64,000 nt of DNA from Escherichia phage vB_EcoM_JB75 (MH355584.1), one strand, 5' to 3'. Counted from the first letter of the stretch, positions 5,641-48,572 are shown. Notes: generated by a model from the letters alone, not told the origin. Program-made: numbers and translations.

Positions 5641-5670
5641 AGGGAGAGCCTCGGCTCTCCCTTTTTTATT
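5641..5670 (+). terminator. rho-independent terminator after gene 52 and the small ORF
   Basis: AGGGAGAGCCTCGGCTCTCCCT hairpin followed by TTTTTTATT. Confidence 0.8.
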
Positions 5671-5692
5671 TCAAAAATTTTTTCACAAAACG

Positions 5693-5726
5693 GTTTACAA
5701 CCAAAGCATACTGTGGTACTATACAA
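5693..5726 (+). promoter_or_regulatory. early promoter
   Basis: GTTTACAACCAAAGCATACTGTGGTACTATACA; almost identical to the promoter at 22504. Confidence 0.7.
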
Positions 5727-5771
5727 CTATCAAATAAATGAACTGAAACAAACAACCCGGAGATACAAAAA

Positions 5772-6038: not shown

Positions 6039-6070
6039 GTTTACTTCTGCTTTAAACATGATACTATAGA
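6039..6070 (+). promoter_or_regulatory. early promoter upstream of motA
   Basis: GTTTAC at 6039 and TACTATAG at 6062. Confidence 0.65.
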
Positions 6071-6104
6071 CCTATCAAATAAATGAACTGAAACGGAGAT
6101 TAAA

Positions 6105-22454: not shown

Positions 22455-22484
22455 GGGGACCTCTAGGGTCCCCTTTTTTATTTT
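22455..22484 (+). terminator. rho-independent terminator after gene 32
   Basis: GGGGACCTCTAGGGTCCCC hairpin followed by a T-run. Confidence 0.8.
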
Positions 22485-22503
22485 AAAAATTTTTCACAAA
22501 ACT

Positions 22504-22536
22504 GTTTACAACCAAAGCATACTATGGTACTATACA
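22504..22536 (+). promoter_or_regulatory. early promoter
   Basis: GTTTACAACCAAAGCATACTATGGTACTATACA. Confidence 0.7.
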
Positions 22537-22576
22537 ACTATCGGCAATACTGCTGATAATTAAAGAGGAAAATAAT

Positions 22577-22848: not shown

Positions 22849-23214
22849 ATGTATACCGGTAAAAAGTATGAACTTGTTCCAAGACTTATTGATACATTTA
22901 TTAATTATCGCCCACGTTCTAATTCATCAATAGTTAAAATTATTCAAGAAAATGGCGGATGGTTTGAAGTTAAAGAAGCTTTCTTTGTTGATGGATTTAG
23001 AGTAATAAAACACATTGAATGCGCAAATGGAAAGCATTTTTACTTTAACGTTTGTGAAGACGAATTTCATTGTTTTCGCGAGTATAAAGAACCGACTTCT
23101 GAAGAAGATGGAGCCGAAGACATAGTTTCTGGCGTAACAAAAATTCACTGCGTTGTTGACGAAAACAATGTAGACGAAATCATTGAACTTTTGCGAAAAA
23201 CTTTCAAAAAGTAG
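22849..23214 (+). CDS. hypothetical protein (121 aa)
   Basis: ORF with SD gaggaaaacg. Confidence 0.55.
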   Translation: MYTGKKYELVPRLIDTFINYRPRSNSSIVKIIQENGGWFEVKEAFFVDGFRVIKHIECANGKHFYFNVCEDEFHCFREYKEPTSEEDGAEDIVSGVTKIHCVVDENNVDEIIELLRKTFKK

Positions 23215-23271
23215 TTTACAGAAGGGTAGTAGTGTGATACTATTACCCTATCAACTACTGAGGAGAATAAA

Positions 23272-23514
23272 ATGAGATTACAACGTCAGAGCATCAAAGA
23301 TTCAGAAGTTAGAGGTAAATGGTATTTTAATATCATTGGTAAAGATTCTGAACTTGTTGAAAAAGCTGAACATCTTTTACGTGACATGGGATGGGAAGAT
23401 GAATGTGATGGATGCCCTCTTTATGAGGATGGAGAAAGCGCAGGATTCTGGATTTACCATTCTGACGTCGAGCAGTTTAAAGCTGATTGGAAAATTGTGA
23501 AAAAGTCTGTTTAA
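23272..23514 (+). CDS. hypothetical protein (80 aa)
   Basis: ORF with SD gaggagaat and an early promoter. Confidence 0.55.
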   Translation: MRLQRQSIKDSEVRGKWYFNIIGKDSELVEKAEHLLRDMGWEDECDGCPLYEDGESAGFWIYHSDVEQFKADWKIVKKSV

Positions 23515-29706: not shown

Positions 29707-31294
<1,588 letters not shown>

Positions 31295-31297
31295 GCT

Positions 31298-31351
31298 GTT
31301 TACACGTTCCTTATGTTGTGTTATAGTAGTCTTACTGACATAACATGAGGA
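31298..31351 (+). promoter_or_regulatory. early promoter cassette (PeSL-like) upstream of alc
   Basis: GTTTAC -35, then the 37 nt block GTTGTGTTATAGTAGTCTTACTGACATAACATGAGGA that is identical to 47244-47280. Confidence 0.65.
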
Positions 31352-31355
31352 CTTT

Positions 31356-31862
31356 ATGATGGATTTGCAGCTTATTACTACTGAAATGGTCGTTGAAGCA
31401 TACGGTGATACTACAGATGGGATTTCTGTATTCAAAGGAAATCGTCGAGTTGGATATATCACTGATCTTAAGAAAGATTTAGCTAAGCAAGTCAAGCGGA
31501 AAACGACCATTAAAGAATATCGAAATCGTCGTCTTGAGCAAGCCCGTGATATGCTTCCTGATGCGGTTGAGGAGATGAAAGTCTTTTTAGAAAATCAACT
31601 CGCTAAGTATGATTGTGAAGTGTTCATTAATCAGACTCAACCTAATGTTCATATCAATAGTTGTAAATGCTATATCATCGTTAATCCTTTGACTGGAAAG
31701 CATCGTCTTGGAATTAGTAATCCAAATCGTAGTGCATCGGATATGGCAGAAGATGTTGAGGCATGCTTTAAAATTTCTAAATCTCCAGCTGAACATCATA
31801 TTTTAATTAACGGTCTTTCTCAAGACGATATTATAGAGGTTATTAAAACTTTATGCAATTAA
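31356..31862 (+). CDS. alc: Alc, host transcription unfolding/termination protein (about 167 aa)
   Basis: Length and position (downstream of rnlA) as in T4; early promoter cassette upstream. Confidence 0.7.
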   Translation: MMDLQLITTEMVVEAYGDTTDGISVFKGNRRVGYITDLKKDLAKQVKRKTTIKEYRNRRLEQARDMLPDAVEEMKVFLENQLAKYDCEVFINQTQPNVHINSCKCYIIVNPLTGKHRLGISNPNRSASDMAEDVEACFKISKSPAEHHILINGLSQDDIIEVIKTLCN

Positions 31863-34618: not shown

Positions 34619-34657
34619 GTTTACTTTACGGTAGAGTTGTGATATTATAGCTCTACC
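34619..34657 (+). promoter_or_regulatory. early promoter with stem-loop around the -10
   Basis: GTTTAC at 34619; inverted repeat GGTAGAG...CTCTACC brackets GATATTAT. Confidence 0.6.
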
Positions 34658-34678
34658 AAAACAAATGAGGAAATTGAA

Positions 34679-35206
34679 ATGAGCGAATGGTTTGAAGAAG
34701 ATAAGGTTTATCGCTTTAAAACTGGGTATAAAGATATTTTTAATGAAACTTGCGGGGCTAATAAACGAATTGCCCAGTTTATTGGGGAAAATTCATTTAA
34801 AGTAAAAATAGATCCTGCGAAAAATGTTATTAGCATTAAACGCGAAATTGATGACTGCTGGTATAAAGCTGTTGATGTAATGGGCGAATCCTATAAAGTT
34901 AGCCCGTTATTTTCAATTGCTTATATGTTAGAATATTCTTTTTTCGAAGAAGTTCAAAAAGATGATTCTGCCAGTAAATTTGAAATTAAAACTGATAAAG
35001 AAATTAAGTGGAAAGTAGTAGGTATTACTGGTTGTATGTTTTATATCTATGCTCAAACTGATACGAAGGAAGAAGCTAAAAATAAAGCTCTAGAATATCT
35101 TGAAGAGTATGAAGAAGGTCCGGTAATGATTACTCAAGATGCTGAATTAGTTTCTGTCAAATTAGTTAAAAACGTTGAAAGTAAGGAGCTGGGATCAACA
35201 TGCTAA
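34679..35206 (+). CDS. hypothetical protein (175 aa)
   Basis: ORF with SD gaggaaatt and an early promoter with stem-loop upstream. Confidence 0.6.
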   Translation: MSEWFEEDKVYRFKTGYKDIFNETCGANKRIAQFIGENSFKVKIDPAKNVISIKREIDDCWYKAVDVMGESYKVSPLFSIAYMLEYSFFEEVQKDDSASKFEIKTDKEIKWKVVGITGCMFYIYAQTDTKEEAKNKALEYLEEYEEGPVMITQDAELVSVKLVKNVESKELGSTC

Positions 35207-38080: not shown

Positions 38081-38257
38081 ATGGCAAAACAAGCTAAAGC
38101 AAAGAAAGCAGTTGAAAAGAAAGTTGGTGATTCTAAACGCGCTGGCTACAAGCGTGGGTCGAACTCTCGTATCAATCAAACTGTTGAGAAGATCATGCGC
38201 CGAGCACGTGCGGTTCTTCGAGATGATGCTTCTCGTTTTGGTAAGCAGAAAGCATAA
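38081..38257 (+). CDS. small basic protein (58 aa)
   Basis: MAKQAKAKKAVEKKVGDSKRAGYKRGSNSRINQTVEKIMRRARAVLRDDASRFGKQKA; strongly Lys/Arg-rich; followed by a strong terminator. Confidence 0.5.
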   Translation: MAKQAKAKKAVEKKVGDSKRAGYKRGSNSRINQTVEKIMRRARAVLRDDASRFGKQKA

Positions 38258-38262
38258 GTTGA

Positions 38263-38291
38263 GGACTCCTTCGGGAGTCCTTTTTTATTTT
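38263..38291 (+). terminator. rho-independent terminator
   Basis: GGACTCCTTCGGGAGTCC hairpin followed by TTTTTTATTTT. Confidence 0.8.
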
Positions 38292-38310
38292 CCAAAGATT
38301 GCATAAAGTT

Positions 38311-38359
38311 GTTTACAGTATGGTTCCTTTGTGATAGTATTATCTTACACAAACAAAGG
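38311..38359 (+). promoter_or_regulatory. early promoter with stem-loop
   Basis: GTTTAC at 38311; inverted repeat CCTTTGTG...CACAAACAAAGG around TAGTATTAT. Confidence 0.6.
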
Positions 38360-38367
38360 AGAATAAA

Positions 38368-38700
38368 ATGAAAACGATTAATCTGAACGCTGCAGTTAAA
38401 ACTAAATGCTTCAATGGTAAATATGATGAAACTATGTGGTTCTTAATGGCAGTTGAAGGTGATATTATTGAAGTAGAAACAACAGAAGGTATGGGAACAG
38501 ATTTCACCTTTACAATTCAAGTTCATAATTTCTTTACTGGTTGGATTTATGAATTGAATACAGTAATCGTTGGAAAAATTGAACAAAATGAATTAGGTGA
38601 ATGGTATTATGTTACAGCTCGCCAACGTGCCGAACGCTTAATTGAGAAGATGAAAAAAGTTGGTAAACTTGACATGCAGCATTGGAAAGTAGTAAAATAA
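38368..38700 (+). CDS. hypothetical protein (110 aa)
   Basis: ORF with SD aaggagaat and an early promoter. Confidence 0.6.
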   Translation: MKTINLNAAVKTKCFNGKYDETMWFLMAVEGDIIEVETTEGMGTDFTFTIQVHNFFTGWIYELNTVIVGKIEQNELGEWYYVTARQRAERLIEKMKKVGKLDMQHWKVVK

Positions 38701-38702
38701 TT

Positions 38703-38742
38703 GTTTACTTTGGTACAGGATATGATATTATATACCTGTACC
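38703..38742 (+). promoter_or_regulatory. early promoter with stem-loop
   Basis: GTTTAC at 38703; inverted repeat GGTACAGG...CCTGTACC around GATATTATAT. Confidence 0.6.
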
Positions 38743-38767
38743 GCAATTAAACATCTTGGAGAATAAA

Positions 38768-39133
38768 ATGAACTACATCAACTTTGAACGTAAATATGTT
38801 TCTAATGGTATTGCAGGTTCTATTGATACTATTTGCCTTTGGAAACATCAAAATGGATCAGTATGCGAAATTGAGCAGTATATGACTCCTAATTACGTTT
38901 ATATGCGATTTGAAAACGGTATCACGGTTTCAATCACGATGGAAGGTTCCAACTTTAAAATCGCTCTGGATGATGATTTCCGTGAACGCGATTTAGGGAC
39001 TCATCCTTGCTGGAATGGCGTTAATCGCAAGCTTTTGGTTAAAACTTGGATTCGTCATATTCTGAGTAACAGAGCTAAACCTGAGCATCTTGAAGCAATC
39101 TTTGATGTAGTTCTTAACGAATTTGATATTTAA
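38768..39133 (+). CDS. hypothetical protein (121 aa)
   Basis: ATG with SD ggagaataaa and an early promoter; the ORF-track start at 38756 is a TTG. Confidence 0.6.
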   Translation: MNYINFERKYVSNGIAGSIDTICLWKHQNGSVCEIEQYMTPNYVYMRFENGITVSITMEGSNFKIALDDDFRERDLGTHPCWNGVNRKLLVKTWIRHILSNRAKPEHLEAIFDVVLNEFDI

Positions 39134-42874: not shown

Positions 42875-43059
42875 AAGCTTACTTAGAAACAATTGTCATT
42901 GCTCAAAAAGAAGGTGGAGATGTTTCTACTTCTGTATCACAAGTCATTCTCGAATTTGTAGATGCATACGCTTATAATAAATTCACAGAAACATTTGATG
43001 CCTATGAAAAAGGTCCAAAGTTTGAAATATACCGTACTCTCTTACCACTAGATTATTAA
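42871..43059 (+). CDS. hypothetical protein (62 aa)
   Basis: ATGA-coupled to gene 30; followed by a terminator hairpin. Confidence 0.45.
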   Translation: MKAYLETIVIAQKEGGDVSTSVSQVILEFVDAYAYNKFTETFDAYEKGPKFEIYRTLLPLDY

Positions 43060-43080
43060 AGGCCTTCGGGCCTTTAATTT
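43060..43080 (+). terminator. hairpin terminator upstream of alt
   Basis: AGGCCTTCGGGCCT hairpin followed by a T-rich tract. Confidence 0.6.
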
Positions 43081-43108
43081 TATAAATAGAATAAACACTA
43101 GAGAGGCT

Positions 43109-45169: not shown

Positions 45170-47227
45170 ATGGAACTTATTACAGAATTATTTGACGGCG
45201 CTTCGGCGCCGGTTGTTAACTTAAATCCTAAGCATAAAATACCACAAATTTTTGCTATTCAAGCCGGCGAAGAAAGCGTGCTTCCTGGATTTAGATTTTG
45301 TACATACACCTCTGGTGGTGATACGAATAAAAACGTTAAGCCAGGCGATAAAATGATGCATATCGTAATGATAGGTGTTAATGAGAAACTATCATTAGTT
45401 AAGCTTAAAAACTTGGGTGGAAATCCAATTGGTGTCATTAATGCCGTTTTTGATACTGCTCTTCAAACAATGAAACAGTATAAAATCGACGCATGCCTAT
45501 TCCGCGTACTAAAAAGTAAAACAAATGGCGCAGCTCGTCAAATGCAAGTTATTGCTGACCGTTTAGTACGTACTAAAGGAGCAGGTCGATATGTTCTTTT
45601 AAAGGAAATCTGGGACTATGATAAGAAATATGCATATATTATGGTTTACCGTAAAAATGCCAATTTAGAAGACATTCCAGGTGTACCTCCTATTTCAACT
45701 GAGTTATTCACAAAAGTTGAATCAAAGGTCGGTGATGTTTATGTAGACGTTAAAACAGGAAATGCTGTTCCTAAAGCTGTCGCTGTTGCTGCTTCTATTG
45801 CTTTAGAAAATGATAAGCGCACGGACCAAGCTGTTATTCAGAAAACTAAAATCAGTCGTCGATTAGCAGCACAAGCTCAATATTCTACTGTTGATGCTTC
45901 ACTTCAGGGTGATAGCTTTGCTGCCAAGAAATATCAAGAGTTTGAATCTAAAGTTCCGGTATATAAAGCAGAAGGTCCGATGAACTCTGGCGTTATCCAG
46001 ATTGGTTCAAACTTCAGCAAAGGAGCTATCGGTGGTATGAGAAGTGCTTCTCGTTTTAAATCTAACGATTATGAACTAGAAAGCTTCCGAAATCATATTG
46101 CATTGGCCCATGCACGTTTACGTGATCCATCTATCAAGTTGCAGAGCGATATAACATATCAAGGTTCTCAAGAATATTTAAAGAATAAAGAATTCTTTGA
46201 TTATAAAACTGATAAAATTTTAAGCGATCTTGCTGACATTAATATTTCTAATAGCTTTGATGTTATTAAGAAAATTATCAATGATTTGGTTAAAGGTTCT
46301 AAAGCCACGCCAGATGAAAAGACAGCTATTATTCAATTTGTAATGAATGGCATTTATAAATTGATTAATGAATCTGCTGCCCAGGCATATGAATACGCAA
46401 GCACCGAAGTAGCTCCAAAAGGACTGACTCAGGCTGAATCTGATGTAATTGAAGATTATTGTGCAGATTCATATGTTGAAATGAACTCGTTCCTTTTGGG
46501 TAAACCAGATTCTACCCGTGAAGAATACATGGAACGAGCTATTAAGCACATCGAGACGTTAGATTCTGCCTTTGCCAAAGGATCAGTTCTTCCTCCAGGA
46601 ACTACACTTTACCGTGGGCAAGAAGTTACCTTTAAAACTTTGCGTCATAACATTGAAAATAAAATGTTCTATTTCAAGAACTTCGTATCCACATCGCTTA
46701 AACCAAATATCTTCGGTGAGCATGGTAAAAACTATATGGCTCTAGATGATTCTGGCGCAGTATTTTCTGGCGAAGGAGAAGGTTCCGTTGATACAGAAGA
46801 TTTGATGCATATGGGTAGTCATTCTACATATGCTAATGAAGATGCTGAAACTAGCGTGGGTATGGTAATTAAAGGAGCTGAGCGAATCAAAGTTATCGTT
46901 CCAGGTCATTTATCAGGATTTCCATCAGAAGCTGAAGTTATTCTACCACGTGGAATTTTACTGAAGATTAATAAAGTAAGTACGTACTTTATGAAAGAAA
47001 CTGCTTATAACAAGTATCTAATCGAAGGTACAATCGTTCCTCCTTCTGAACAATTAGAAGAATCAGTATATGATGGAGACCATCTAATGGAAACTGGTGA
47101 AGTTCGTCCAATGGCTGGATTTAATCAATTCCTTGTAGAAGAATCAAAAGAAGAGGAAAATGAAGTTTCTCAAATCTTGGCTTCTTTGGTTAACATCAAC
47201 GGAATGTCTAAAAAGTTCAAAATGTAG
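45170..47227 (+). CDS. Alt-family ADP-ribosyltransferase paralog 2 (685 aa)
   Basis: Tandem paralog with the same N-terminal about 200 aa and R-S-E motifs (LYRGQ, FVSTSL, EVILPRG) but a diverged central region. Confidence 0.8.
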   Translation: MELITELFDGASAPVVNLNPKHKIPQIFAIQAGEESVLPGFRFCTYTSGGDTNKNVKPGDKMMHIVMIGVNEKLSLVKLKNLGGNPIGVINAVFDTALQTMKQYKIDACLFRVLKSKTNGAARQMQVIADRLVRTKGAGRYVLLKEIWDYDKKYAYIMVYRKNANLEDIPGVPPISTELFTKVESKVGDVYVDVKTGNAVPKAVAVAASIALENDKRTDQAVIQKTKISRRLAAQAQYSTVDASLQGDSFAAKKYQEFESKVPVYKAEGPMNSGVIQIGSNFSKGAIGGMRSASRFKSNDYELESFRNHIALAHARLRDPSIKLQSDITYQGSQEYLKNKEFFDYKTDKILSDLADINISNSFDVIKKIINDLVKGSKATPDEKTAIIQFVMNGIYKLINESAAQAYEYASTEVAPKGLTQAESDVIEDYCADSYVEMNSFLLGKPDSTREEYMERAIKHIETLDSAFAKGSVLPPGTTLYRGQEVTFKTLRHNIENKMFYFKNFVSTSLKPNIFGEHGKNYMALDDSGAVFSGEGEGSVDTEDLMHMGSHSTYANEDAETSVGMVIKGAERIKVIVPGHLSGFPSEAEVILPRGILLKINKVSTYFMKETAYNKYLIEGTIVPPSEQLEESVYDGDHLMETGEVRPMAGFNQFLVEESKEEENEVSQILASLVNINGMSKKFKM

Positions 47228-47280
47228 TTTACAAGTCCCTCGTGTTGTGTTATAGTAGTCTTACTGACATAACATGAGGA
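47227..47280 (+). promoter_or_regulatory. early promoter cassette (PeSL-like), second copy
   Basis: GTTTAC -35, then the same 37 nt block as 31315-31351, including the SD. Confidence 0.65.
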
Positions 47281-47287
47281 ACACAAA

Positions 47288-47578
47288 ATGAAATCTTCTT
47301 TGCGCTTTTTAGGTCAAGAACTTGTAGTTGAAGGAGTTATTCCTGCTGATAATGCTTTTAATGAAGCAGTTTACGATGAATTTATCAAAATTTTTGGAAC
47401 AGATAAAAAGTTCGGAATTTTTCCTTCTGAAAATTTTTCAAAGCCAGAACAGACTGAAAGTATTTTCCAAGGTGTAGTAACAGGTAAATTTGAGTCAGAA
47501 GCTCCGGTAAAAATTGAAGTTTATATTGAAGACAGTTTAGTTGCTTCAGTTTCTGCTTTCATTTCATTCCGTAAATAA
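47288..47578 (+). CDS. hypothetical protein (96 aa)
   Basis: ORF with SD gaggaacac, preceded by the repeated promoter cassette; followed by a bidirectional terminator. Confidence 0.55.
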   Translation: MKSSLRFLGQELVVEGVIPADNAFNEAVYDEFIKIFGTDKKFGIFPSENFSKPEQTESIFQGVVTGKFESEAPVKIEVYIEDSLVASVSAFISFRK

Positions 47579-47584
47579 AAATAT

Positions 47585-47602
47585 GGGGACCGAAAGGTCC
47601 CC
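47585..47602. terminator. bidirectional terminator between converging transcription units
   Basis: GGGGACCGAAAGGTCCCC hairpin between a + strand ORF and gene 54 (-). Confidence 0.7.
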
Positions 47603-47606
47603 ATTG

Positions 47607-48572
47607 TTATATTGCTCCTAATATTTTACTCTGCGAATTGACAATTCCTGTCATAGTATTAATATTTGAAATGCTTCCTGTAGTTCCCCCTAATCTACTA
47701 AGTCGTGAAAGCGAATTAGATAGTCCAGTAACACCTCCACTATTTCCGAGAACGCTTTGAATACCATTTATAGTAGCAGATTCAAGCCATTCAAGGGCAG
47801 CTTGTCTATCAACTGCTCCAGCCTGCATCACTCTATACGCAAAAGTAACATCAAATGTAGTTATTTGGTTATCTCCATCATATGATAACTCAGGAGCGCT
47901 TACGGACACTGGAATGCATCCAGTGAACATCACCGCAGTATGTGGTAATCCATTGCGAGAATGAAGATTAACCTGAATATCTGCCTCGACATCTTGCGGC
48001 AAAGCACGCAATCCAGTTACTGGGTCTTGAACAGCGTTAACCCAGTCTTGCATTGCACGATAGTTACAAGCTTCTGAATCCATTCTGAATGAAATAACCA
48101 AAGGGTCTAATTCTCTCCCAGTTATACGAATATTAGGAGAATTATAGTTCCAGTCAGTTTCATAGGATAATCTATTCTCTGGCATTTTTACAGAGTATAT
48201 CATCAATCCAGATGAGTTATATGCCACGTTAAAGAAGTCAATTAAATATGTACCAACTGTAAATGAGCCTAATAAACTTTGAACTGTACGTTGACTCATG
48301 GCACCAATAAGATATTTACTAACCCCTGATTTTCTTATCAGTTTTTGTGTGCCAGCTGTAATTAGCGTAGTAATTCCCTGATTAATATCGCCTTGAGTTA
48401 ATCCTAACCAATCTGAATTTAGGCCCAAGTTATTATAAGAAAAGTTGCTAATTGAACTTATCAACGAAGAGCTTTTAGTTGATGGAGTTGTAGCAAAAAC
48501 ACAGCTGAACATATTATTACGTTGGAAATCTGCGTTTATTGCTTGATTATTAAATTCCTCTAAAGAATACAT
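47607..48572 (-). CDS. 54: baseplate tail-tube initiator gp54 (321 aa)
   Basis: Synteny (29-48-54) and length (T4 gp54 320 aa). Confidence 0.8.
   Translation of the reverse strand: MYSLEEFNNQAINADFQRNNMFSCVFATTPSTKSSSLISSISNFSYNNLGLNSDWLGLTQGDINQGITTLITAGTQKLIRKSGVSKYLIGAMSQRTVQSLLGSFTVGTYLIDFFNVAYNSSGLMIYSVKMPENRLSYETDWNYNSPNIRITGRELDPLVISFRMDSEACNYRAMQDWVNAVQDPVTGLRALPQDVEADIQVNLHSRNGLPHTAVMFTGCIPVSVSAPELSYDGDNQITTFDVTFAYRVMQAGAVDRQAALEWLESATINGIQSVLGNSGGVTGLSNSLSRLSRLGGTTGSISNINTMTGIVNSQSKILGAI

Follow-up and report, generated by a model that had tools for sequence, protein, structure and literature searches.

A duplicated early promoter of T4-like phages set in a predicted SD-masking hairpin at alc and alt.-3

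Introduction

The masking of a Shine-Dalgarno sequence (SD) by a hairpin that contains a promoter is an established device of phage T4 for the genes e, soc, 49, and I-TevI (PMC3014915). In these masks, the SD and/or the AUG is held in a helix on transcripts that were started upstream, and the promoter lies between or within the arms of that helix. Transcripts from that promoter begin without the 5' arm and can be translated, and translation is thus bound to one temporal class of transcripts. The promoters of this group are late promoters (TATAAATA), and their genes are translated late only. The genes alc and alt.-3 are absent from the masked genes listed in that review.

The early ('uber') promoters of T4 form a second group, which carries GTTTACA at -35, a 17-nt spacer, TGn, and TATAGT directly before early genes (PMC2988021). 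An extended UP/-35/TGn/-10 consensus has been derived for them, but no complementarity between the spacer and the leader or SD is described in that work. A third related system is the promoter early stem-loop (PeSL), in which a terminator-like stem-loop lies upstream of a promoter; PeSLs occur in many copies in hyperplastic regions beside variable ORFans, and recombination takes place between the copies (PMC2839356, PMC4122927).

The present analysis concerns a duplicated early-promoter cassette in 64,000 nt of Escherichia phage vB_EcoM_JB75 (MH355584.1), the whole of which is referred to as the window. One copy precedes alc, a known immediate-early gene whose product, Alc, is a host-transcription terminator, and the other precedes alt.-3. 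By prediction, the cassette shares with the masks of e, soc, 49, and I-TevI the placing of the SD in a helix on RNA started upstream, the predicted position of the promoter within the arms with an own transcript that would be free of the 5' arm and translatable, and the binding of translation to one temporal class of transcripts. In contrast to these late-promoter masks, its promoter is of the sigma-70 early type, translation is predicted to be early only, and the 5' arm is the -35/-10 spacer itself. Because of its sigma-70 early promoter, the cassette is a variant rather than a member of the late-promoter masks. What is new is therefore modest, namely an early-promoter variant of a known T4 device that has been duplicated as a unit. 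No earlier report of spacer-to-SD complementarity at T4 early promoters was found in the literature searched, which leaves aside the classic T4 promoter papers, where it may be described.

The Duplicated Cassette and Its Genomic Setting

The window belongs to a Tequatrovirus (T4-like phage), and both regions flanking the cassettes match ~500 T4-like records at 94-100% identity. Its + strand is the T4 early (counter-clockwise) direction. The preliminary description of this DNA had reported an identical 37-nt promoter/leader cassette that occurs twice, each time after GTTTAC and between diverged flanks, and an exact-match scan confirms it. The core, GTTGTGTTATAGTAGTCTTACTGACATAACATGAGGA, is found at 31315-31351 and 47244-47280 on the + strand and nowhere else in the window with up to three mismatches, and 100 dinucleotide-preserving shuffles contain no match. 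The true repeat is longer, since repeat-finding (direct-repeat family D9) extends the core to 54 nt that begin with GTTTAC at 31298 and 47227 and are 93% identical between the two sites. These two copies, cassettes A and B (Table 1), are ~16 kb apart. All four mismatches between them fall within the promoter spacer, between the -35 and the extended -10, and the two copies of T4 differ at 1 of the 54 positions. Outside the repeat, neither flank of site A is related to that of site B. With a 71-nt query over site A, 997 places are found in 499 records, which corresponds to two copies per genome at the same two sites and no third.

Table 1. Positions of the cassettes, their hairpins, and neighbouring features in the window.
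Feature	Position	Strand	Basis or remark
rnlA (gene 63)	30170..31294	+	upstream neighbour of cassette A
Cassette A: early promoter and leader of alc, GTTTAC to SD GAGGA	31298..31351	+	repeat family, exact core, promoter scan
Cassette A, -35 TTTACA	31299..31304	+	promoter scan
Hairpin A, left arm: promoter spacer, anti-SD TCCTTATGTTGTGTT	31308..31322	+	RNA folds
Cassette A, extended -10 TGT TATAGT	31319..31327	+	promoter scan
Cassette A, predicted TSS (A, 7 nt after -10)	31334	+	in apical stem, 3' of whole left arm; standard sigma-70 spacing
Hairpin A, right arm: 5'UTR GACATAACATGAGGA including SD GAGGA (31347-31351)	31337..31351	+	RNA folds
alc (167 aa, Pfam ALC)	31359..31862	+	start at second ATG; first ATG at 31356
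T4 late-promoter motif TATAAATA	43081..43088	+	upstream of alt paralogue 1; probable origin of late RNA that reads through cassette B
Second Alt-like ADP-ribosyltransferase paralogue	45170..47227	+	directly upstream of cassette B
Cassette B: 54-nt early promoter and leader of alt.-3	47227..47280	+	exact core, repeat family, promoter scan
Hairpin B	47235..47282	+	left arm 47238-47251 (spacer, CCTCGTGTTGTGTT), right arm 47266-47279
alt.-3 (96 aa, Pfam DUF5498, phrog_1739; function not assigned)	47288..47578	+	
Bidirectional terminator hairpin, alt.-3 / convergent gene 54	47583..47604	.	ends cassette B transcription unit

Both copies are early promoters followed by a leader, as had also been proposed, and they are strong ones of the sigma-70 type. 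The promoter scan at 31299 and 47228 finds TTTACA, a 17-nt spacer, and TATAGT with TG, which amounts to 10 of 12 consensus matches, and GAGGA followed by ATG stands at the 3' end of each cassette. By sequence, both fit the T4 early promoter type of PMC2988021. The predicted start of transcription in cassette B is at 47263. No promoter features are annotated in the cassette region of NC_000866, and the literature search found no mapped start site for alc.

Cassette A occupies the rnlA/alc intergenic region. The alc gene begins with tandem ATGs (31356-31361), of which the second lies 7 nt after the SD. The real start is the second, because the first reads ATA in 11B_SA_NWU and UFV06 and NC_000866 annotates alc as 167 aa; several database records annotate the gene from the first. 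A mini-ORF in the leader (AUG at 31345 and 47274, with an AUGA overlap with the gene start) was considered and set aside as a coincidence, since no SD of its own precedes it and relatives differ in its stop. The scan of site A found no terminator between rnlA and alc, so delayed-early read-through RNA would bear a masked alc. A strict-motif search directly upstream of rnlA found no middle (MotA-box) or late promoters, and read-through at this site therefore rests on upstream early promoters and the missing terminator.

Cassette B lies between the second alt paralogue and alt.-3. Within the scanned part, 46900-47700, the first terminator-like hairpin after the cassette is the one at 47583, 3' of alt.-3. 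Late alt transcripts are thus expected to cross cassette B, since they would start at the late promoter at 43081 and the next terminator found is at 47583. That late promoter directly follows a terminator-like hairpin (GGCCTTCGGGCC, 43056-43079), and the two form a composite terminator/late-promoter junction upstream of alt.

The T4-type alc cassette is also carried by two records with other host names, MG010123.1 ('Staphylococcus phage SAJK-IND', 32 kb) and PV654520.1 ('Pseudomonas phage vB_PSGBLB0006', 142 kb), the latter with an Alc that is 100% identical. Both look like mislabelled or contaminated Tequatrovirus sequence.

Predicted Folding of the Cassette

The cassette is a single long inverted repeat, in which the spacer and extended -10 are complementary to the 5'UTR and SD. 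Between the arms of hairpin A there is a 4-bp apical stem, and the whole predicted hairpin has 19 bp. In hairpin B, the right arm includes the SD GAGGA (47276-47280) except for its last base, A47280, which is unpaired in a 1x1 mismatch opposite C47237. Folded from the -35 to the start codon, the read-through RNA has predicted energies of -21.4 and -23.0 kcal/mol for window A and B, respectively, and of -24.4 and -23.0 kcal/mol for T4 A and B. These folds have z scores from -4.4 (window B) to -5.0, and none of the 200 shuffles of each sequence is as stable. The leaders made by the promoters themselves have z scores of +0.8 and +2.2 and are, if anything, less structured than shuffles.

The top of the left arm holds the -10, the predicted start (31334 or 47263) falls 3' of the entire left arm, and the promoter's own transcript would accordingly keep the right arm only and be unstructured. 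The predicted cost of opening the region from the SD to the AUG is 10.6-12.8 kcal/mol in read-through RNA versus 1.2-2.9 kcal/mol in the own transcript. This opening cost in longer contexts was used in place of the probability that the SD is unpaired in short constructs, which misled at site B, where a weak local pairing of 5 bp dominated. Neither hairpin is followed by a U-tract, the tails being CUUUAUG at A and ACACAAA at B, and for this reason the cassette hairpin is not an intrinsic terminator. An Rfam scan of 28000-50000 at E <= 1 gave no match at either cassette.

The alc Cassette in Other Genera

The region upstream of alc was compared in nine other genera. In five of them, an anti-SD directly follows GTTTACA and is paired with the SD by different stem sequences (Table 2), and the predicted cost of opening is 8-17 kcal/mol in read-through RNA versus 1-3 kcal/mol in the own transcript. 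A MAFFT alignment of seven alc cassettes with RNAalifold did not align the right arms correctly and yielded a weak consensus, and the stems of six genera were instead anchored by hand at the stem base. Of the 80 cells compared in this way, 79 pair, and changes on both sides are seen in 8 of 13 pairs. The anti-SD TCTCC or TCCTC tracks the SD GGAGA or GAGGA across the genera. As judged from these alignments, the base pairs of the alc hairpin are kept through compensatory changes across six genera.

Table 2. Stem arms of the hairpin upstream of alc in five other genera.
Phage	Left arm	Right arm
IME08 (Dhakavirus)	TCTCCTCAT	ATGAGGAGA
STP4-a (Gelderlandvirus)	TCTCCGTTT	AAACGGAGA
Klebsiella phage Lion_ER11	TCCTCATCAG	CTGATGAGGA
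UFV01 (Karamvirus)	TCTCCATTTGGTT	AACCAAATGGAGA
CHI14 (Winklervirus)	TCCTCATTTCGTT	AACGAAATGAGGA

The mask is not indispensable, because the alc promoters of RB69 (Mosigvirus) and Acinetobacter phage Kimel leave the SD unmasked. The SD of phage 44RR2.8t is masked through pairing of another kind, and in Yersinia phage vB_YenM_P8 an additional ORF takes the place of the alc promoter.

These comparisons bear on two other accounts of the cassette. The likeness of A and B could simply be that of two strong promoters which are conserved through a rich T4 early consensus and shared ancestry, with the hairpin being incidental. T4 early promoters do have a consensus that extends beyond the -35, TGn, and -10 (PMC2988021), leader motifs such as ACAACATGAGGA recur among early leaders, and other promoter pairs of the window are also very similar, for instance 5658-5731 and 22469-22542 (74 nt, 89%). 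However, positions in the spacer and leader lie outside the consensus and vary greatly among the other early-promoter-like sites of the window, the fold is far more stable than those of shuffles, and the stems covary across six genera with the SD always inside the stem. Moreover, the SD is masked by the spacer at only 4 of the 12 early promoters tested in the window, namely 2556, 31299 (alc), 38312 (gene 30.8), and 47228 (alt.-3). Plain conservation with an incidental hairpin is thus quite unlikely.

The inverted repeat could also act as DNA, as a palindromic operator over -10/+1 on which a dimeric phage or host protein shuts off alc and alt.-3. Both genes have an identical, near-perfect palindrome with its centre at -10/+1, and the shut-off of T4 early promoters is still unexplained (PMC2988021, PMC3014915). 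Against such an operator, the arm sequences vary between genera with compensating changes, which argues for base-pairing rather than a protein half-site, and the G.U (G.T) pairs of the Tequatrovirus stem can pair on the transcribed-sense strand only. The property that is conserved is complementarity to the SD, and an operator is a highly improbable explanation.

Variation within Tequatrovirus and the Origin of Copy B

A scan of IMG/VR for the core gave only 7 loci, too few for an analysis of populations, and 10 phage genomes were therefore added. The resulting sample of 27 cassette copies from 10 genomes and 7 metagenomic loci describes variation within Tequatrovirus. Cassette positions 41-54, which comprise the 5'UTR and SD, are invariant in all 27 copies. 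Variants in the stem are mostly switches between Watson-Crick and G.U pairs (T11, T13, T15, A16, A40), and three natural variants (T16, A18, and A29) weaken a stem.

In the five other genera examined (Dhakavirus, Mosigvirus, Marfavirus, Karamvirus, and Kanagawavirus), no alt.-3 promoter carries the alc-type cassette. They belong to another promoter type, which has a short hairpin within its spacer, and three or four of the five show little or no SD masking; at PEi26 alt.-3, the SD is masked through another pairing that extends into the coding region. Given its absence from alt.-3 in these five genera, B was most likely derived from A within the Tequatrovirus lineage, and the SD-masking cassette would be ancestral at alc. 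The reciprocal event, a swap of the Mosigvirus alc promoter for an alt.-3-type cassette, was considered on account of ATCAACAACAYGAGGA, which is common to the RB69 alc and moha alt.-3 leaders. It was dropped because the alc and alt.-3 promoters of RB69 are no more alike than other early promoters of that phage (e.g., 3654 versus 12892, which agree at 38 of 56 positions).

The same variant haplotypes are found at both sites in different phages. Site A carries the haplotype T11-T15-A16 in the window and OE5505; site B carries it in T2, T6, BCPEco_001, one IMG/VR contig, and at least 26 database records, among them PST. For the haplotype A29-A32, the phages are 11B_SA_NWU and UFV06 at site A and UFV06 and T2 at site B, and RB68 has A16 at both sites. 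Five variant alleles are common to A and B, out of 9 and 8, respectively. The probability of this sharing is 7.6e-6 when all substitutions are allowed, 3e-4 for transitions only, and 0.014 when only C/G sites are mutable, which is the most conservative assumption. The recurrence of haplotypes at the two sites suggests occasional ectopic gene conversion between the two 54-nt homologies, whose length is about the minimum for T4 recombination (Singer et al. 1982, as cited in PMC2839356). Every shared polymorphism is C-to-T or G-to-A, and the sharing could in part be due to recurrent mutation. A crossover of A with B would delete or duplicate 16 kb with the genes 30, 31, cd, and pseT, and no such rearrangement is seen in any of the ~499 records.

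Comparison with PeSL

The preliminary description had likened the cassette to PeSLs, that is, to a mobile unit of promoter and stem-loop whose copies recombine and so bring in, remove, or exchange neighbouring gene modules. The part of this claim that stands is an early promoter/SD unit that was most likely copied and whose alleles appear to be exchanged. PeSLs and the cassette have in common an early sigma-70-like promoter conserved together with the SD and start codon, in copies that are usable as short recombination homologies. Two direct copies of early promoter and SD exist, B has replaced a different ancestral alt.-3 promoter, alleles are common to both copies, the length of 54 nt is near the recombination minimum cited above, and a difference in gene content begins 20 nt upstream of cassette B.

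The remainder of the claim fails. The stem-loop of a PeSL lies upstream of the promoter, whereas that of the cassette spans the promoter and SD. There is no terminator-like or significant stem-loop upstream of the -35 at either site, and the 76 nt upstream of each -35 fold like shuffles (z -0.16 and +0.75). PeSLs also have an AT-rich stretch upstream of the -35; A-rich runs precede both cassettes (AAAAATTATAAAAAATTTAT at A and CTAAAAAGTTCAAAATGTA at B), and they lie within the upstream coding sequences and are not common to both copies. The cassette does not sit in a hyperplastic region rich in ORFans; the copies are separated by 16 kb with core genes (30, 31, cd, pseT) rather than ORFans, the rnlA/alc flanks are kept in 494 of 498 records, and the copies are fixed at two places per record in ~499 records. 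The shuffling of gene modules is contradicted by the same records, in which relatives have the same genes at both sites and two copies each. It had been reasoned that the same genes beside diverged cassettes would speak for plain promoter conservation; the genes at both sites are indeed the same in relatives, but the cassettes themselves have not diverged.

The sole difference in gene content beside a cassette is that T4 has alt.-1 and alt.-2 in place of the second alt paralogue of the window, and this did not use the cassette. Within alt paralogue 2, T4 has lost the 1690 nt that lie between two 9-nt direct repeats (CTAAAAAGT) and correspond to window positions 45518-47207, and the deletion stops 20 nt before the -35 of cassette B. 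T4 alt.-1 (phrog_23015) and alt.-2 (phrog_15247) map to paralogue residues 1-56 and 62-117, respectively. By this mapping, they are the remnant N-terminus of the second Alt-like ADP-ribosyltransferase paralogue, which is intact in the window (685 aa, 44% identical to paralogue 1), T2, T6, and RB68. The T4-type arrangement is present in ~96 of 500 records. No indel mediated by the cassette was found in these comparisons. The cassette is therefore PeSL-like in part, being a portable unit of promoter and SD that also provides a short stretch of homology; membership of the PeSL family is largely refuted, and a mobile cassette of that kind is very unlikely.

Proposed Mechanism

The favoured explanation is an early promoter embedded in an SD-masking hairpin, which would couple the translation of alc and alt.-3 to the use of their own promoters, with B having been copied from A and the copies undergoing occasional gene conversion; its probability is put at roughly 0.65. 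The left arm, 15-19 nt from the -35 to the end of the -10, would pair with the promoter's own 5'UTR and SD. RNA begun upstream would contain both arms, and the resulting 19-bp hairpin would bury the SD and leave alc or alt.-3 untranslated. At site A, such RNA would be early or delayed-early RNA from rnlA, and at site B it would come from the late transcripts of the TATAAATA promoter of alt, on which the hairpin would silence alt.-3. On the other hand, RNA from the cassette promoter (predicted +1 at 31334 or 47263) would have the right arm only, and would thus be open and translated. The start sites, the read-through RNA and its quantity, and any change in translation enter this scheme as predictions. 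The outcome would be translation tied to the use of the own promoter, and hence synthesis in the immediate-early phase only.

Two causes may account for the near-identity of A and B. The first is that B would have arisen in the Tequatrovirus lineage from the ancestral alc cassette. The second is the double constraint that promoter, pairing, and translation start region would place on the same nucleotides, together with occasional ectopic gene conversion.

If the masking reading is true, a subset of early genes in T-even phages would be translated only from transcripts of their own promoters, as a mirror image of the late-gene trick of lysozyme. It would explain how the early gene alt.-3 can end the late alt transcription unit without being synthesised late, and how the synthesis of Alc can be confined to the first minutes of infection. 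It would also give a concrete reason for the frozen spacer and leader positions of these promoters, and provide a natural example of a regulatory cassette that was transferred whole to a second gene, with the two copies since kept alike by gene conversion. As a part for phage engineering, the cassette would be compact, at 54 nt, and would couple promoter use with translation. In other respects, the finding of two known, look-alike T4 early promoters is an ordinary one.

Other Early Promoters of the Window

Inverted repeats bracketing the -10 had also been noted at 34619, 38311, and 38703, and these are borne out by predicted folds of -16.3, -12.5, and -19.4 kcal/mol with z scores of -3.5, -1.9, and -5.3, respectively. 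At 38311-38373, ahead of gene 30.8, the spacer is complementary to its own SD, and the predicted opening cost is 10.1 versus 0.3 kcal/mol in read-through and own transcript. Just upstream of this promoter, 38213-38296 gives a weak Rfam match to Atu_C8, an sRNA of Rhizobiales (31.4 bits against a gathering score of 50, E 0.008), which is probably due to chance. A hairpin of 15 bp between spacer and SD is predicted at 2555-2618 (-22.7 kcal/mol, z -4.8), with an opening cost of 16.1 versus 1.0 kcal/mol; this promoter precedes a 37-aa membrane ORF (phrog_3098) in the denB/ndd region.

At 34619-34684 and 38703-38773, the -10 is surrounded by strong hairpins that end short of the SD. Conservation of the arms at 38703 (GGTACAGG/CCTGTACC) extends to RB69. 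A 17-bp hairpin at the alc promoter of Kimel likewise brackets the -10 with the SD outside. Since the hairpins at 34619 and 38703 are equally strong and leave the SD untouched, promoter-spanning hairpins may have another or an additional role.

One such role would be in the fate of the RNA, through processing of the RNase III type, stabilisation or insulation of the rnlA or alt messages, or shielding of the SD region from endonucleases. The 19-bp stem is near the size of an RNase III substrate, RNA structure protects T4 messages from RegB (PMC3014915), and the hairpins at 34619, 38703, and Kimel alc span promoters without covering the SD. However, the feature conserved in six genera is the SD itself in the stem, and the missing U-tract speaks against intrinsic termination. 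An effect on RNA fate is unlikely as the main function, and it is compatible with masking rather than exclusive of it.

Another role would be in timing. The -10/+1 palindrome of alc and alt.-3, which takes other forms at 34619, 38703, 2555, and 38311, might be the target of T4 early-promoter shut-off, as DNA or as nascent RNA. The hairpin would then be regulatory for the shut-off 2-3 minutes after infection, instead of or besides masking translation, and the chance of this is very slight.

Besides the pair at 5658 and 22469, early-promoter-plus-leader cassettes are duplicated at 2547-2616 and 23206-23275 (70 nt, 79%) and at 5714-5749 and 6059-6094 (36 nt, 92%). The window thus contains several paralogous promoter pairs, of which alc/alt.-3 is one. 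A second class of early promoters (e.g., 2049) has a short hairpin that lies wholly in the -35/-10 spacer, such as TACCAC AAGGACA GTGGTA. Its stems are compensatory between phages (CACC..GGTG versus CACA..TGTG), and the class is found at alt.-3 in other genera and at RB69 alc.
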